A stretch of DNA of 64,000 nt, from NCBI GenBank assembly GCA_964016885.1, contig OZ024747.1:26660001-26724000 (forward strand), written 5' to 3'. The notes beneath the pieces are model-generated. The model was given only the letters and a program-made list of their open reading frames with translations, searched no databases and was not told where the DNA came from. Positions within the stretch are counted from its first letter, which is position 1, and each line of letters begins with the position of its first letter. Shown one piece after another: positions 5,293-42,740 of the stretch. Both the position numbers and the translations under genes were made by a program. Origin of the DNA: Eledone cirrhosa (taxonomy: Eukaryota).

Positions 5293-6320
5293 TTTCGTTT
5301 CTGAATTTGTTTAGCAAGATTCTTTATCTGAAAACGTGTGTTGAAACCGATATTGTTATACTTTGGGAGGGTCATGTTGCCAATAACAAACACACGCACT
5401 AGTTGCTTTCACTTCAATTTATTATAAATTAAATTTATAAATTTAGGAATTTATAAATTTCCGGTTGGTTGGTTGGTTCCACAACCAGACGATTGTTCAT
5501 ATATTGTCAAAGTTCTTTCGTCACACATTCTGTGACCTCTTCAGTGACTGGGGATTCTTTTCTTTGTTTTTTGTGCCTCTCCTTTGTTCTGTCCTACGCC
5601 ATCTTGTTTTTGTGTGTTCTCCTATACTACGAGCTGTCTCACCTATGTACACTATATTCTTATCTCTACATTGTCCTTCAGTACTTCTTATGCTATATAC
5701 TACATTTCTAGTTTTACAGTTAATATGGGGGCTTAATTTACAGATTATACATTTCTTATCTATACAGGGAGGTCTTTGAAAAGGGTATGTATTGCTAATA
5801 AGTGTTTTTATGGAGGTACCTGGTCTTTCTACTATCTTAATATTGAGTTTATGTTTATCTAGAGTCCTTCTAAATCTGTAAGCTAATTCACCTCTAGGGG
5901 TTGTATTGATGAACATTACACTCTGGTATTTATTGCTATCATACCATGAGTTTATTCTATTAACCTTATTCCTAGTTCTTTCTATTCAATTCCAAAATTT
6001 GCTCCTATACAAGGGGCAGGTCCCATTTGTATCATTATTTACCATTTTTTCCCATTTGGTTCTGGCTCCTCTATATACTCTGATTTTATCTCTCTGATTG
6101 TAACCTGAGAACTGCATACGGTGGATAAAGTGTTGTATGTGTCTCTCTAGTTCTTTGGGGTTGCACATGCGGGACACGTTTCTCATCACCCGTACCAAAT
6201 CCGCAATCAGTATGTTGATTTTGGTATGGTCCGAAACGGCCGAGTTTCGGTGGATCAGATGTTTGGAAGTCATGGGTTTGGCATAATGGGAATGGAGGAT
6301 TTGTTTTTTGTTATTAATGG
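5293..6320 (-). mobile_element. Penelope-like element fragment (Neptune-like), 5'-truncated and internally deleted
   Basis: RT thumb, Cys linker (PPCIDKKCIICK..C) and GIY-YIG start (NVVYSI..VYIGETARS); highly similar to 38238-42735; deletion near 5615 joins the endonuclease to the 3' UTR. Confidence 0.9.
5506..5548 (-). ncRNA. type I hammerhead ribozyme in PLE 3' region
   Basis: GTCA-CTGAAGA-G-GTCACA-GAATG-TGTGAC-GAAA-GAACTT-TGAC. Confidence 0.75.
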
Positions 6321-10374: not shown

Positions 10375-10472
<98 letters not shown>

Positions 10473-10604
10473 GTATATTTGGCAATATACCGTATGTTTA
10501 ATTAAAAACATTTAGAAGACCATACGCTATCAGTTTTAAAGTAGTGACTATGTCGCTTACTTCTTTTCTATAAGAATCCAACTTCGATAATTTTCGGCAA
10601 AAAC

Positions 10605-10668
10605 AAGGGAGTCAGTGGCTCTGATGAACGCCAACCAGCGTGAAACAGACTGTCAGCTTCTCTCCCTT
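10605..10668 (+). ncRNA. type I hammerhead ribozyme
   Basis: AAGGGAG..GGCT-CTGATGA(10621-10627)-ACGC-CAACCA-GCGT-GAAAC-AGACT-GTC-AGCT..CTCCCTT; GUC triplet; inside 31-bp inverted arms 10538-10568 and 10677-10707. Confidence 0.88.
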
Positions 10669-10851
10669 CTTTCGCTGAAAAGAAGTAAGTGACATAATCA
10701 CTACTTTCCTAATCTCCTCCAGGAATTAGAGATTATAGTATATCATTGTTTTCAACCTAATCTTTTTCACTTTTATTGAGCTCCTTCCTAATCACTTTGC
10801 ACAAAAATATTTTCGTTATAATTCCGAGGCACTTATTCCCAAAACTGATTT

Positions 10852-35630: not shown

Positions 35631-35765
35631 TACAAACATCACATTAAACATCACATTGCTTATGACGCATGCTTATGTAAATATCGATCCACATACATAA
35701 ACCCTCACACACATGCATACTATATATTTGTGTGTGTGTGTATGTATGTGTGTGTATATATATAT

Positions 35766-35810
<45 letters not shown>

Positions 35811-35814
<4 letters not shown>

Positions 35815-37360
35815 TATAGACATAGAATATTCGAAAATATTCTGTATGTTTATAATAAACATTTTGAAGACCTAATCGCTATAGAATAGAATACGTCACG
35901 TATTACAATTAGATTCTCGATAAAAGCAAGGGAAGTAATCTACGCGTTTCATTCTCGTAAGAAATCATCAGGACTACATATCCAGTGCTTTTATCGAGAA
36001 TGACACAGCTAGAGACTTATAGAATACTTAGCTGTGTACAGGAACTGGTTTGAAAGAGCGGTTGCCGGTCCGGCAGAAATTAGAAATTGGAATAAATGCT
36101 CTGAAATAGCGATATATATGTGAATATAGACATAGAATATTCGAAAATATTCTGTATGTTTATAATAAACATTTTGAAGACCTAATCGCTATAGAATAGA
36201 ATACGTCACGTATTACAATTAGATTCTCGATAAAAGCAAGGGAAGTAATCTACGCGTTTCATTCTCGTAAGAAATCATCAGGACTACATATCCAGTGCTT
36301 TTATCGAGAATGACACAGCTAGAGACTTATAGAATACTTAGCTGTGTACAGGAACTGGTTTGAAAGAGCGGTTGCCGGTCCGGCAGAAATTAGAAATTGG
36401 AATAAATGCTCTGAAATAGCGATATATATGTGAATATAGACATAGAATATTCGAAAATATTCTGTATGTTTATAATAAACATTTTGAAGACCTAATCGCT
36501 ATAGAATAGAATACGTCACGTATTACAATTAGATTCTCGATAAAAGCAAGGGAAGTAATCTACGCGTTTCATTCTCGTAAGAAATCATCAGGACTACATA
36601 TCCAGTGCTTTTATCGAGAATGACACAGCTAGAGACTTATAGAATACTTAGCTGTGTACAGGAACTGGTTTGAAAGAGCGGTTGCCGGTCCGGCAGAAAT
36701 TAGAAATTGGAATAAATGCTCTGAAATAGCGATATATATGTGAATATAGACATAGAATATTCGAAAATATTCTGTATGTTTATAATAAACATTTTGAAGA
36801 CCTAATCGCTATAGAATAGAATACGTCACGTATTACAATTAGATTCTCGATAAAAGCAAGGGAAGTAATCTACGCGTTTCATTCTCGTAAGAAATCATCA
36901 GGACTACATATCCAGTGCTTTTATCGAGAATGACACAGCTAGAGACTTATAGAATACTTAGCTGTGTACAGGAACTGGTTTGAAAGAGCGGTTGCCGGTC
37001 CGGCAGAAATTAGAAATTGGAATAAATGCTCTGAAATAGCGATATATATGTGAATATAGACATAGAATATTCGAAAATATTCTGTATGTTTATAATAAAC
37101 ATTTTGAAGACCTAATCGCTATAGAATAGAATACGTCACGTATTACAATTAGATTCTCGATAAAAGCAAGGGAAGTAATCTACGCGTTTCATTCTCGTAA
37201 GAAATCATCAGGACTACATATCCAGTGCTTTTATCGAGAATGACACAGCTAGAGACTTATAGAATACTTAGCTGTGTACAGGAACTGGTTTGAAAGAGCG
37301 GTTGCCGGTCCGGCAGAAATTAGAAATTGGAATAAATGCTCTGAAATAGCGATATATATA
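35811..37360 (-). mobile_element. retrozyme-like tandem array: five 310-bp units, one HHR each
   Basis: Units start 35811, 36121, 36431, 36741, 37051, apparently identical; minus-strand HHR at 35935-35977, 36245-36287, 36555-36597, 36865-36907, 37175-37217; no ORF. Confidence 0.92.
35935..35977 (-). ncRNA. type I hammerhead ribozyme of the 310-bp unit (first copy)
   Basis: GTAGTC-CTGATGA-T-TTCT-TACG-AGAA-T-GAAAC-GC-GTA-GATTAC; distal stem I extension ATTCTCGATAAAAGCA/TGCTTTTATCGAGAAT. Confidence 0.88.
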
Positions 37361-37398
37361 TAAATAGCGATATATATATAGTCCTGATGATATATATA

Positions 37399-38219
37399 TA
37401 GTCCTGATGATTTCTTACGAGAATGAAACGCGTAGATTACTTCCCTTGCTTTTATCGAGAATCTAATTGTAATACGTGACGTATTCTATTCTATAGCGAT
37501 TAGGTCTTCAAAATGTTTATTATAAACATACAGAATATTTTCGAATATTCTATGTCTATATTCACATATATATCGCTATTTCAGAGCATTTATTCCAATT
37601 TCTAATTTCTGCCGGACCGGCAACCGCTCTTTCAAACCAGTTCCTGTACACAGCTAAGTATTCTATAAGTCTCTAGCTGTGTCATTCTCGATAAAAGCAC
37701 TGGATATGTAGTCCTGATGATTTCTTACGAGAATGAAACGCGTAGATTACTTCCCTTGCTTTTATCGAGAATCTAATTGTAATACGTGACGTATTCTATT
37801 CTATAGCGATTAGGTCTTCAAAATGTTTATTATAAACATACAGAATATTTTCGAATATTCTATGTCTATATTCACATATATATCGCTATTTCAGAGCATT
37901 TATTCCAATTTCTAATTTCTGCCGGACCGGCAACCGCTCTTTCAAACCAGTTCCTGTACACAGCTAAGTATTCTATAAGTCTCTAGCTGTGTCATTCTCG
38001 ATAAAAGCACTGGATATGTAGTCCTGATGATTTCTTACGAGAATGAAACGCGTAGATTACTTCCCTTGCTTTTATCGAGAATCTAATTGTAATACGTGAC
38101 GTATTCTATTCTATAGCGATTAGGTCTTCAAAATGTTTATTATAAACATACAGAATATTTTCGAATATTCTATGTCTATATTCACATATATATCGCTATT
38201 TCAGAGCATTTATTCCAAT
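37399..38219 (+). mobile_element. inverted continuation of the 310-bp array, about 2.6 units, three HHR cores
   Basis: Reverse complement of the left array; HHR at 37399-37440, 37708-37750, 38018-38060. Confidence 0.92.
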
Positions 38220-38237
38220 ATATATATATATATATAT

Positions 38238-41085
38238 ATTTCGTTTCTGAATTTGTTTAGCAAGATTCTTTATCTGAAAACGTGTGTTGAAACCGATATT
38301 ATTATACTTTGGGAGGGTCATGTTGCCAATAAGAAACACACGCACCAGTTGCTTTCACTTCAATTTATTATAATAAATTTATAAATTTAGGAATTTATAA
38401 ATTTCCGGTTGGTTGGTTGGTTCCACAACCAGATGATTGTTTATATATTGTCAAAGTTCTTTTGTCACACATTCTGTGACCTCTTCAGTGACTGGGGATT
38501 CTTCTCTTTGTTTTTGTGCCTCTCCTTTGTTCTGTCCTACGCCATCTTGTTTTTGTGTGTGTGTTGTGTGCTTAGTTTGCGCATGTGTTACATCCGGGTA
38601 TCCGTGTGTGTTTATATTCGTTTATTTATTTGTTTATTTGCATGTTACTGGTTGGTTGTTTGTTCTATGTGCGTGTGTGTTTTCATTTTGTCCTTAATTG
38701 TAAGTTGTGATGCTGCTGTTCCATTCATGTTTTCTATTTAATTTTGGTTGGAGTTCATTTATGTTTATTGCCTCTGTGATTTGTCTAAACATTGCGTCTT
38801 TTCTGTGTGTAGATTCTATTTTTATTTCTATGTTCTCTAGTTTACCTTTTTTATTTCTATGTTCTCTAGTTTACCTTTTTTATTTCTATGTTCTCTAGTG
38901 ACCTGCAAATCATTATGAACAATATAAATGTCGAAGCAGGAAGCTTAGGTCTCAATATCAGTGCTAAGAAGACCAAAAGCATGTTATCTGGGACACACCC
39001 ATCACCAACTAGTGTTTTCATTGAACAGGGGGAGGTGGAGATAGTGGACAACTTCACCTACCTAGGAAGCTCCATTGACAATGGAGGCGCCATGGACAGT
39101 GAATTGCAATGTAGAATGGGAAAGGCATCAGCAGCATTTAACCAGCTTGTCAAGATCTGGAGGAGCAGGAAGTTCACCCTCAAAACAAAGATGAGATTCT
39201 ACAACAGCAACGTGCTGTCCACACTCTTGTACGGAAGTGAAACATGGCACCTTAAGACCAGCCAAGAGAAGAAGTTGGACGCATTCGATTCCAGGTGTCT
39301 GCGAAAGATCCTGGGGATTAAATGGAGTGACCATGTAACAAACCAGGAAGTCAGGAACCGCACCAATCAGCAGCTGGTCTCTTCTGCCATCTGCAAGCGA
39401 CGCCTGGGTTGGTTTGGGCATGCTTTGAGACCTCCCCCGGAGAGTCTGGCGAACCAAGTACTTAAATAGAACCCACAGGGAAGCAGACGGAGAGGGCGAC
39501 CCAAAATGAACTGGCGCCAGACAGTTGAGAGGGACCTGCGAGCGACAAACAGACAATGGCGGGACGCTGTGCAACTGGCTGCTGACCGAACGCGGTGGAA
39601 CACTATGATTGCCTCATGCGTCGCAAGACGCGGGAGCTTCTGAGTCTGAGTCTAGTTTACCCTTATGTTCTATTTTAGCATGTTGGTAGAGTACAGATGA
39701 TTCTTTACTATCTTGAAGGTCTCGCCAGTGTTCATTTATCCGTTCCCCTATACTACGAGCTGTCTCACCTATGTACACTATATTTTTATCTCTACATTGT
39801 CCTTCAGTACATCTTATGCTATATACTACATTTCTAGTTTTACAGTTAATATGGGGGCTTAATTTACAGATTATACATTTCTTATCTATACAGGGAGGTC
39901 TTTGAAAAGGGTATGTATTGCTAATAAGTGTTTTTATGGAGGTACCTGGTCTTTCTACTATCTTAATATTGAGTTTATGTTTATCTAGAGTCCTTCTAAA
40001 TCTGTAAGCTAATTCACCTCTAGGGGTTGTATTGATGAACATTACACTCTGGTATTTATTGCTATCATACCATGAGTTTATTCTATTAACCTTATTCCTA
40101 GTTCTTTCTATTCAATTCCAAAATTTGCTCCTATACAAGGGACAGGTCCCATTTGTATCATTATTTACCATTTTTTCCCATTTGGTTCTGGCTCCTCTAT
40201 ATACTCTGATTTTATCTCTCTGATTGTAACCAGAGAACTGCATACGGTGGATAAAGTGTTGTATGTGTCTCTCTAGTTCTTTGGGGTTGCACATGCGGGA
40301 CACGTTTCTCATCGCTCGTGCCAAATCCGCAATCAGTATGTTGATTTTGGTATGGTCCGAAACAGCTGAGTTTCGGTGGATCAGATATTTGGAAGTCATG
40401 GGTTTGGCATAATGGGAATGGAGGATTTGTTTTTTGTTATTAGTGGTATCTAACCAGAGCTCTGTGTCTAGTACAGGTAATCGATGGTTGGGGTGTTTTT
40501 GTGGGTAGTCTATAGTAACTCTAATACTCTGGTGGATGGAGTTAGCTATTTGCTAGATGCTTTCCATTGTGTTTTTCTCTAATTCCTGACTGTTCTCTAG
40601 TGGGGGGGGGGGGGTTACTACGATGTTTATATCATCAACGTAGTGGGAGTACATTATCAGAGTTGAGGGGTCTTCTAATTGTTCTTTAAGTTTAAGTTTA
40701 AGTCTACTGTCCCACCATACCATAAATAGGTTAGCTATGTCGCCTGCAATGCTAACACCAATGGCTGCTCCCTCCTCTTGGGCATATGTTTTTCCATTAA
40801 ATTTGAACATATGTTCCTTAAGGGTTAATTTTATGCTGGCCCCCACCGCATGTGCAATCATTTTCTTTAGTTCATAGGGATTTTCGGGGGTCCGTATGGC
40901 TCTGGTCCACCCGTTCCATCTATCCGTGTGGGTTTTCTTGGCCATTGAGGTAATGGTAGGTGGTCTGCCTCTTGCTGGTCTTGTAGGGAACAGGTTGCTA
41001 AGGTCATATGTATATAGATAATTATTACTATAGGTAAGTTTAAGTAGGAGTCCCAGCTCACTGGTATCAATCCCACGGAATTCAA
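38238..41085 (-). mobile_element. Penelope-like element (Neptune-like), left arm, interrupted by RTE
   Basis: RT (FKFNGKTYAQEEGAAIG..IANLFM..YVDDIN), thumb, Cys linker, GIY-YIG; stops at 40553 and 40112; HHR at 38450-38492 has GAAA>AAAA. Confidence 0.93.
38900..39650 (+). mobile_element. 5'-truncated RTE-clade LINE nested in PLE
   Basis: GLNISAKKTK, FTYLGS, STLLYGSETW, RLGWFGH, RRRGRPK; tail CTGAGTCTGAG; TCTAGT at 38894-38899 and 39651-39656. Confidence 0.92.
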
Positions 41086-42735
41086 CATTGGTGTTAGCAT
41101 TGCAGGCGACATAGCTAACCTATTTATGGTATGGTGGGACAGTAGACTTAAACTTAAACTTAAAGAACAATTAGAAGACCTCTCAACCCTGATAATGTAC
41201 TCCCGCTACGTTGATGATATAAACATCGTAGAAAAAACACCCCCACTAGAGAACAGTCAGGAATTAGAGAAAAACACAATGGAAAGCATCCAGCAAATAG
41301 CTAAATCCATCCACCAGAGTATTAGAGTTACTATAGACTACCCACAAAAACACCCCAAACATCGATTACCTGTACTAGACACAGGCTCTGGTTAGATACC
41401 ATTAATAACAAAAAACAAATCCTCCATTCCCATTATGCCAAACCCATGACTTCCAAATATCTGATCCACCGAAACTCAGCTGTTTCGGACCATACCAAAA
41501 TCAACATACTGATTGCGGATTTGGTACGAGTGATGAGAAACGTGTCCCGCATGTGCAACCCCAAAGAACTAGAGAGACACATACAACACTTCATCCACCG
41601 TATGCAGTTCTCTGGTTACAATCAGAGAGATAAAATCAGAGTGTATAGAGGAGCCAGAACCAAATGGGAAAAAATGGTAAATAATGACACAAATGGGACC
41701 TGCCCCTTTTATAGGAGCAAATTCTGGAATAGAATAGAAAGAACTAGGAATAAGGCTAATAGAATAAACTCCATGGTATGATAGCAATAAATACCAGAGT
41801 GTAATGTTCATCGATACAACCCCTAGAGGTGAATTAGCTTACAAATTTAGAAGGGCCCTAGATAAACATAAACTCAATATTAAGATAGTAGAAAGACCAG
41901 GTACCTCCATAAAAACACTTATTAGCAATACATACCCTTTTCAAAGACCTCCCTGTATAGATGAGAAATGTATAATCTGTAAATTAAGCCCCCATATTAA
42001 CTGTAAAACTAGAAATGTAGTATATAGCATAAGATGTACTGAAGGACAATGTAGAGATAAAAATATAGTGTACATAGGTGAGACAGCTCGTAGTGTAGGG
42101 GAACGGATAAATGAACACTGGCGAGACCTTCAAGATAGTAAAGAATCATCTCTACTCTACCAACATGCTAAAATAGAACATAAGGGTAAACTAGAGAACA
42201 TAGATATAAAAATAGAATCTACACACAGAAAAGACGCAATGTTTAGACAAATCACAGAGGCAATAAACATAAATGAACTCCAACCAAAATTAAATAGAAA
42301 ACATGAATGGAACAGCAACATCACAACTTACAATTAAGGACTAAATGAAAACACACACGCACATAGAACAAACAACCAACCAGTAACATGCAAATAAACA
42401 AATAAATAAACGAATATAAACACACACGGACACCCGGATGTAACACATGCGCAAACTAAGCACACAACACACACACAAAAACAAGATGGCGTAGGACAGA
42501 ACAAAGGAGAGGCACAAAAACAAAGAGAAGAATCCCCAGTCACTGAAGAGGTCACAGAATGTGTGACGAAAGAACTTTGACAATATATAAACAATCATCT
42601 GGTTGTGGAACCAACCAACCAACCAACCGGAAATTTATAAATTCCTAAATTTATAAATTTATTATAATAAATTGAAGTGAAAGCAACTGGTGCGTGTGTT
42701 TCTTATTGGCAACATGACCCTCCCAAAGTATAACA
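41086..42735 (+). mobile_element. Penelope-like element (Neptune-like), right arm in inverted orientation
   Basis: YSRYVDDIN, LPVLD, complete GIY-YIG ORF 41804-42337; 1-bp frameshifts near 41384 and 41771. Confidence 0.93.
42539..42581 (+). ncRNA. type I hammerhead ribozyme in PLE 3' region
   Basis: GTCA-CTGAAGA-G-GTCACA-GAATG-TGTGAC-GAAA-GAACTT-TGAC. Confidence 0.78.
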
Positions 42736-42740
42736 ATATA

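Follow-up and report, generated by a model that had tools for sequence, protein, structure and literature searches.

Organization of the retrozyme array

We analyzed a 64,000-nt stretch of the Eledone cirrhosa genome (assembly GCA_964016885.1, contig OZ024747.1, positions 26,660,001 to 26,724,000, forward strand; hereafter the window, in whose numbering coordinates are given) that contains a head-to-head array of 310-bp units, each with a hammerhead ribozyme motif. A sequence-only reading of the window had described five identical units on the minus strand and about 2.6 on the plus strand, together with flanking (TA)n. The arms indeed consist of exact 310-bp repeats, 5.00 on the minus and 2.65 on the plus strand, and (TA)n is present at both ends of the array. 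The unit has a G+C content of 107/310 (35%), and its position 1 is set at window position 37435, the base after a predicted GUA cut. The two arms diverge, so that on either side the ribozyme strand reaches (TA)n with its 3' end. The array is composed as follows:

35755-35810, strand not assigned: left (TA)n target.
35811-37359, minus: left arm, 5.00 exact units, 1,549 bp; outer (3') end at unit position 130, inner end at 132.
37360-37398, between the arms: junction of 39 nt with slipped duplications (18 bp and 20 bp) of both arm ends, joined via TA microhomology.
37399-38219, plus: right arm, 2.65 exact units, 821 bp; inner end at unit position 275, outer (3') end at 165.
38185-38219, plus: 35-nt tail (unit positions 131-165), at the right end only and missing from the left end.
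38220-38239, strand not assigned: right (TA)n target.
37435-37744, plus: predicted cut-to-cut 310-nt monomer; second plus copy at 37745-38054.
36871-37180, 36561-36870, 36251-36560 and 35941-36250, minus: predicted 310-nt monomers.

The 35-nt tail would sit between two putative start sites of reverse transcription. The earlier description of the unit as free of open reading frames agrees with a survey of 20 array stretches, in which no frame of at least 250 amino acids was found, bar microsatellite read-through, and no frame combining a reverse transcriptase (RT) with a GIY-YIG endonuclease. A target-site duplication is not readable at the arrays, both flanks being (TA)n.

A dispersed and recently mobile family

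In the 3.0-Gb genome a degenerate ribozyme core has 18,012 matches and an exact 38-mer of the unit body 16,105, the reversed control giving 0 in each case. The end motifs joined to TA have 1,070 and 1,234 matches for the two ends, and a variant end motif has 70; since end-motif counts miss variant ends, we estimate 1,200-2,000 loci, or about 5.6 Mb. The exact haplotype of the window is rare, with 217 ribozyme copies genome-wide. The occurrence at more than 1,000 loci speaks against a single-locus product of DNA-level duplication, one of the outcomes by which the sequence-only reading proposed to be judged, and the retrozyme is a dispersed, multi-locus, recently mobile family. Unit size, hammerhead, fold, absence of a coding frame and dispersal all fit the proposed identity: the array is a young, abundant, protein-free retrozyme of the kind without long terminal repeats (non-LTR).

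Loci were compared in a set of 104 stretches, comprising the window and 103 others: 24 taken by similarity to the window, 39 selected because their ends were paired and 40 because theirs seemed unpaired, the latter two batches both from contig C1. All 40 of the fetched "unpaired" ends turned out to be retrozyme arrays and none a coding element. The unit and its TA-joined end are also present, at very high depth, in public sequencing run X1, and six runs of unspecified kind contain 89-96% of the unit's words, no RNA run being listed among those with the unit. Runs X2, X4 and X5, labelled as three other organisms, each gave one 340-nt self-overlapping contig. Tandem DNA gives the same contig, so these runs argue neither for a circle nor for a spread beyond this organism; relatives, carry-over and diet are all candidate sources.

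Insertions have fixed, asymmetric outer ends

The 104 stretches hold 91 arm pairs in the minus-then-plus (head-to-head) order and no adjacent tail-to-tail pair. In 81 of the 91, one outer end lies at unit positions 117-143 and the other at 155-175; the other ten are cut by the fetch edge (six) or complex (four), and no pair has both ends at the same site. All 81 resolvable pairs carry one end from each cluster, where independent choice would be expected to put both ends at one site in about half of them. Three modal positions stand out among the outer ends, 130 (n = 46), 139 (n = 28) and 165 (n = 70), the first two lying 26-35 nt from the third. Minor ends occur at 167-172, where TA or AT is likewise available in the unit; TATATA follows directly after 169 of 172 outer ends. 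The same one-of-each rule is seen in the batches not chosen as pairs (18/21 and 24/29, the rest being cut or complex), and in a coordinate list a divergent "130" partner exists for 53 of 83 "165" ends and a "165" partner for none. A lone apparent 130-130 pair in that list was resolved as two separate insertions.

A further 22 segments are single. Genuine one-arm insertions seem to make up about 13 of them; the others result from gap or fetch-edge cuts or are parts of complex loci. One-arm insertions with a 130/139 end are L035, L042, L044, L052, L095, L101, L103, L106 and L108, and those with a 165 end are L083, L091 and L093. This bias, in a small and unevenly drawn sample, hints that 130/139 is the first or main start.

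Variable phase had been predicted for dispersed arrays, and the prediction holds for the inner junctions and fails for the outer ends, which are fixed. Inner ends show a uniform spread along the unit (p 0.58); 5 of 182 lie no more than 10 nt from the cut site, where 11.7 would be expected. At least two units are present in 77% of 162 arms, and the longer arm is the one with the 165 end in 46 of the 81 pairs. The arms are joined bluntly or with an overlap at 56 of 91 junctions, with a mean overlap of 2.55 nt compared with 0.76 nt for random joins; 64% of these 56 overlap by at least 2 nt, compared with 18% at random. L040 and L075, which differ in haplotype, are both joined through a 16-bp inverted repeat, as expected for two complementary DNAs (cDNAs) of the same polarity annealing at their 3' ends. 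Head-to-head arrays with fixed asymmetric ends are the signature of an inverted copy plus tail that is left by Penelope-like elements (PLEs), and we consider two-ended priming of the PLE type very probable.

Each locus probably descends from a single template

Among 60 pairs with arms of at least two units, 58 have the same majority haplotype in both arms, with 24 haplotypes in circulation; sharing by chance averaged 5.8 pairs and reached at most 15 over 10,000 shuffles. Across 762 full units the mean difference is 0.53 within a locus and 2.97 between loci. Variants found fixed at a single locus of the sample fill every unit of both arms, as do 88A>T (11 + 14 units), 216A>G (9 + 7) and 42G>T (34 + 5), and a 2-bp deletion is present in all 20 anchored units at L200. 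Such spread of a new variant through a whole array calls for a bottleneck of one unit. At the same time, positions 308-1 are unchanged at all 950 places where an arm runs across the cut site, and these scar-free crossings, together with the lack of an inner-end pile-up at the cut, argue for a continuous template. A ligated monomer circle would account for both the bottleneck and the continuity, and is quite likely to be the usual template.

Haplotype switches within an arm were seen at L063, L036, L038 and L032, and at L063 the switch occurs in both arms and follows the outer two ribozyme copies. At L104 one insertion with its junction is present in two copies that are separated by 3 kb and an N gap, which is likely an assembly duplication.

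The variants that fill whole loci also differ in kind from those found in single units. Array-fixed rare changes, defined as variants filling whole loci and found in at most nine of them, are A>G on the ribozyme strand in 11 of 28 cases, as compared with 7 of 96 single-unit changes (Fisher p 1.4e-4); the A>G:T>C ratios are 11:4 and 7:18, respectively (p 0.009). Variants within 15 nt of a junction, known haplotype markers and the duplicate copy at L104 were omitted from the test. The 5' neighbours of the A>G sites are T (5), A (3), C (2) and G (1), a pattern that we take to agree with the preference of ADAR. The excess suggests adenosine-to-inosine (A-to-I) editing of a sense-strand template before copying.

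Hammerhead ribozyme and predicted RNA fold

The hammerhead motif proposed for each unit is found in every one of them, at 37404, 37714 and 38024 on the plus strand and at 37211, 36901, 36591, 36281 and 35971 on the minus strand. The ribozymes and the helix next to them lie at:

37708-37750, plus: type I hammerhead, predicted cut after 37744.
37399-37440, plus: type I hammerhead with the first stem I base lost, predicted cut after 37434.
38018-38060, plus: type I hammerhead, predicted cut after 38054.
37175-37217, 36865-36907, 36555-36597, 36245-36287 and 35935-35977, minus: type I hammerheads of the left arm.
37447-37462 with partner 37684-37699, plus: 16-bp helix extending stem I.

Rfam reported no hammerhead at the gathering score over the whole window, and a search at E<=10 over 37380-38230 gave no hammerhead and one unrelated chance match; the ribozyme call therefore rests on motif, fold and covariation in sister families. 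The 16-bp helix noted earlier is present in the minimum-energy fold, and its 16-nt strand also serves as the junction annealing site at two other loci. The unit is hairpin-rich as described, except that three of its hairpins had been quoted from the antisense strand, so their loops differ on the ribozyme strand. Against 100 shuffles the monomer fold scores z -3.9 when linear and z -4.5 when circular.

Stem III of the monomer has two pairs and a 2-nt loop only. Dimeric cleavage through the palindromic stem III, as the sequence-only reading suggested, agrees with modelling: for a 410-nt transcript that carries two motifs, the lowest-energy structure predicted is a double hammerhead, in which the 6-nt stem III palindrome would pair between units with P about 0.57. 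A dimer-only design has been described for metazoan type I hammerheads (PMC4209133). In the closed circle folded in silico, stem I and the 16-bp helix form and stem II has P about 0.08. Self-cleavage after GUA and a 310-nt circular RNA are predicted.

Ten fixed single-nucleotide variants fall within the ribozyme; they lie in loop II, at the free core position 7 or at the base of stem II, or keep stem I pairing, and none of the ten hits the catalytic core. Single-unit variants do strike the core. Descent from a working ribozyme, and with it the retrozyme identity, appears to us hardly in doubt.

Proposed mechanism

Based on these observations, we think it likely that the retrozyme parasitises a PLE and inserts via a monomer circle by two-ended priming, its RNA steps being reconstructed from the genomic arrays. 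A multimeric sense transcript would fold into double hammerheads and cut after GUA to give 310-nt monomers, which a host ligase would close into circles. The circle would be stable, since the ribozyme cannot fold in it, and may be A-to-I edited. A complex of PLE RT and endonuclease would bind around unit positions 100-170 and nick both (TA)n strands, and two cDNAs would start on the same RNA at the adjacent internal sites 130/139 and about 165-172, helped by 1-8 nt of TA pairing. The number of rounds that each enzyme makes on the circle would vary (median 3-4). The two cDNA 3' ends would then anneal by microhomology and repair would fill in, so that the arms come to lie head to head, with a 26-35-nt tail on one side of the array. 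That a PLE enzyme performs rolling reverse transcription had been put forward in the sequence-only reading; the genomic support for it consists of the fixed paired ends, the one haplotype per locus and the scar-free passes over the cut site.

Several observations weigh against parts of this scheme. The sample covers roughly 5-8% of the loci, mostly from one chromosome, and is non-random. Three of 79 pairs (L063, L113 and L127; the test omits L067m and the L104 duplicate) share a non-fixed variant in the same outer unit or units of both arms; these loci back a single template molecule, yet need a multimer or a fold-back there in place of one monomeric circle. At L082, and likewise at L063, the two arms have different majority haplotypes. 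The distribution of single-unit variants over loci is overdispersed (p 2e-7); some of these variants must therefore be younger than the insertion, and tests that count them as RT errors lose strength accordingly. The two longest arms, of 45 units (L067+L068) and 34 units (L195+L196), contain block duplications of 27 and 17 units, marked by repeated single-unit variants; these are later DNA-level expansion or misassembly, adding length. Added bases replace microhomology at 35 of the 91 junctions. The A>G test was post hoc and covers 28 frequency-polarised sites, three of them from an older subfamily. In the literature, eight of nine Xenopus retrozyme dimers did not cleave in vitro (bioRxiv 10.64898/2026.07.22.740005), and the anole PLE inserted in vitro without need of ribozyme cleavage (PMC11167929). 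Finally, the few families examined contained no autonomous PLE with the retrozyme's end motif: a Neptune-like linker/endonuclease query gave 71,080 candidates, of which 132 were scored, and a shared-module profile had no significant match in 40 loci of one Neptune-like family group (30 plus 10 longer stretches; best E 0.37 and 0.22), in masked flanks or in the window.

Alternative explanations

The three shared-variant loci would be explained if the same two-ended PLE priming usually acts on an uncut linear multimer transcribed from a homogeneous array, or on a multimeric circle, and monomer circles are a rare reset. The two arms at L063, L113 and L127 would then have read one mixed template in identical order, the absence of scars at the cut site is equally expected, and the anole PLE does use unprocessed RNA in vitro (PMC11167929). 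We nevertheless consider such a template unlikely as the usual one. Inherited heterogeneity is limited to these 3 of 79 pairs, compared with 49 private single-unit variants in the overlapping parts of the arms, and the 33 variants fixed across whole loci need monomer bottlenecks. Multimeric daughters should also often meet the inversion of their parent; more than two segments occur in only 9 of 104 stretches, several of which are two separate insertions, and, apart from joins via the 16-bp helix, no junction recurs between independent loci.

A single priming followed by fold-back, in which the first cDNA is itself copied as the second arm and endonuclease trimming makes the tail, would likewise explain the shared haplotypes and the three shared-variant loci, and the short complementarity at the junctions suits it. 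Self-priming on an antisense template was indeed proposed for PLE inversions by Arkhipova et al. (PMC3846280). In the part of the longer arm that would have to be copied, however, private single-unit variants number 28 and shared ones 2 (plus the L063 switch), a comparison that loses power if most such variants arose after insertion. Either end class may provide the longer arm, and the A>G excess is on the sense strand. We thus favour two primings on a sense template over fold-back, which we judge improbable.

Short insertions might instead have been expanded later by unequal crossing-over or other DNA-level amplification, in the manner of a minisatellite; local tandem amplification is discussed in the preprint (bioRxiv 10.64898/2026.07.22.740005), and both the block duplications in the two longest arms and the homogeneity within loci point that way. 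Expansion would have to explain why both arms are multi-unit and of one haplotype at nearly all loci with a single-unit divergence of about 0.03%; arms shorter than one unit cannot seed it, and it leaves the RNA-type A>G bias unexplained, which makes it very improbable. Copying of a cut linear monomer by end-to-end template jumping, with no covalent circle, has an equally slight chance of being correct: it yields a single haplotype at each locus, and L032, L036 and L038 do show occasional template switches, yet 950 crossings contain no scar and inner ends are not piled at the cut (5 of 182). An ordinary satellite, with one or few loci, head-to-tail order and no fixed ends, was rejected in view of the more than 1,000 head-to-head loci with fixed ends. 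Fold-back chimeras of a simple satellite, created during library preparation or assembly, can practically be dismissed: some long arms and L104 are duplicated as an assembly might do, but more than 1,000 loci have fixed asymmetric ends, unique junctions and locus-specific haplotypes, a diverged older family has the same geometry, and the unit and TA-joined end recur in public run X1.

Comparison with known elements

The array resembles metazoan non-LTR retrozymes (Cervera and de la Pena 2020, PMC7229834; Li et al., bioRxiv 10.64898/2026.07.22.740005) in its tandem units, which in that group are 150-450 bp long with a GC content below 50%, in the type I hammerhead of each unit (at a GC content of 35% here), the absence of protein, the self-paired fold, the weak palindromic stem III that needs a dimer (axolotl/newt type) and the co-occurrence with PLEs. 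Those retrozymes are described as head-to-tail, whereas most insertions here consist of a pair of head-to-head arms whose ends in (TA)n are fixed and asymmetric; their circles have been shown by Northern blotting, whereas we infer ours. Circle-templated reverse transcription has been proposed, with PLEs named as candidates (PMC7229834, PMC7761336), and the 2026 preprint adds phylogeny and leaves the mechanism open (bioRxiv 10.64898/2026.07.22.740005). Retrozyme repeats are said to have no conserved motif pointing to a helper element (PMC7761336); in the present family the end geometry does point to one.

Craig et al. (PMC8557442) ascribe to PLE insertions a 5'-truncated copy in inverted orientation, a one-sided tail of 30-40 bp and a bias to microsatellites, and the protein of the anole PLE Poseidon, a predicted dimer, nicks and extends both strands, with two adjacent internal starts bounding the tail (Frangieh et al., PMC11167929). 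The retrozyme is like endonuclease-containing (EN+) PLEs (PMC8557442, PMC3846280, PMC11167929) in the inverted 5'-truncated head-to-head copy, the one-end tail, the microsatellite or AT-rich target, the two adjacent internal starts downstream of the hammerhead and the microhomology joins. It is unlike them in having no RT or endonuclease and in its arms of many short units. In L1 twin priming, one RNA is likewise primed by two target ends, and microhomology joins the resulting inversion. There the upstream site taken by the second primer varies, and no part of the RNA is copied more than once. Retrozyme starts, in contrast, are both fixed, and both arms cover the unit several times. They also show 1-8 nt of TA target pairing, whereas the anole enzyme works in vitro without homology (PMC11167929). 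Non-autonomous Chlamys PLEs such as MRC1 are without canonical hammerheads, and their partners are known by 3' ends in common (PMC8557442), whereas a partner was not found here.

In a literature search made mostly without subscription papers, head-to-head, tailed retrozyme arrays were not reported in the portions of text covered (including PMC11722881, PMC12602865, PMC6685494 and PMC6962438). The word "inverted" is missing from the main text of PMC7229834 and occurs in the preprint (bioRxiv 10.64898/2026.07.22.740005) only in a reference title. The kind of retrozyme is known; the insertion architecture and its evidence on mechanism appear to be new.

Related and neighbouring elements

Besides the main family we observed an older sister retrozyme family, with a unit of about 317 nt that is about 66% identical and with the same two ends and head-to-head layout. 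The sequence of its stems is rewritten with pairing kept, and its stem III has four pairs. Its hammerhead core has U3-A8 in 22 of 32 aligned copies and C3-G8 in 5 of 32, the latter pair being documented through rescue mutants (PMC11167929). In the window, a remnant of a third related element lies at 10458-10710 beside a (TG)n tract. Further hammerhead-like motifs at 2378 (minus), 7830 (minus), 14450 (minus), 30941 (plus) and 31732/31828 (inverted pair) are probably ends of other PLE families. These elements and the coding PLE to the right of the array are located at:

L135-L154 (e.g. L150:946-1904), L128:3015-3251 and L051:6757-6888: sister family.
10458-10530, minus: end module of the third element (E 1e-12).
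About 10615-10665, plus: hammerhead of the third element, within a long helix.
38240-41098 (minus arm) and 41087-42739 (plus arm): right coding PLE, head-to-head, TA on both sides.

The sequence-only reading had placed a PLE 20 bp to the right of the array and a scrap of PLE RT to its left. The former is real (GIY-YIG, E 7.8e-5); the latter matched no Pfam family and had no significant tblastn match to five PLE proteins of the same genome. One end of the right PLE is 56 nt longer than the other, and this one-sided 56-nt tail includes the start of the open reading frame. Hammerhead-like motifs lie at about 38450-38500 (minus) and 42543 (plus), and the element is interrupted at about 38900-39645 by a fragment of a long interspersed nuclear element with DUF6451, presumably RTE-like. 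Another copy of this PLE was noted at about 5294-5985. We rejected the right PLE as the partner of the retrozyme: the TA target is common to both, the terminal sequence is different, and it serves as a comparator only. The neighbouring PLE pieces thus do not count as evidence for the partner, the right one having no matching terminal sequence and the left one being unconfirmed. Elsewhere, an 897-aa open frame of the same PLE family as that of the window (L045:46-2736) adjoins another retrozyme array. Tens of thousands of PLE pieces exist in the genome, and the adjacency at L045 probably reflects common TA targeting.

Significance

Proposals about the spread of animal retrozymes, the enzyme responsible and a circular template date from 2014-2020, and the portions of the literature examined do not demonstrate them; the in vivo origin of inverted, tailed PLE insertions is a related question. 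More than 1,000 near-identical two-arm, multi-unit insertions constitute a natural read-out of the mechanism, each locus reporting the start site at each target end, the single template, the number of rounds per enzyme and the changes made at the RNA stage. A 310-nt substrate with mapped start sites is thereby available for an in vitro rolling-circle test. Tentatively, and with rather more doubt than confidence, we suggest that: (i) each locus may be the record of one circle copied by both halves of a PLE RT dimer; (ii) the family may evolve largely via A-to-I edits that the circle acquires and that reverse transcription returns to the genome; and (iii) the same event, with two starts on one RNA, may explain the inverted copy and one-sided tail of PLEs in general. 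For the genome of E. cirrhosa, about 5.6 Mb would consist of long inverted repeats able to make double-stranded RNA.

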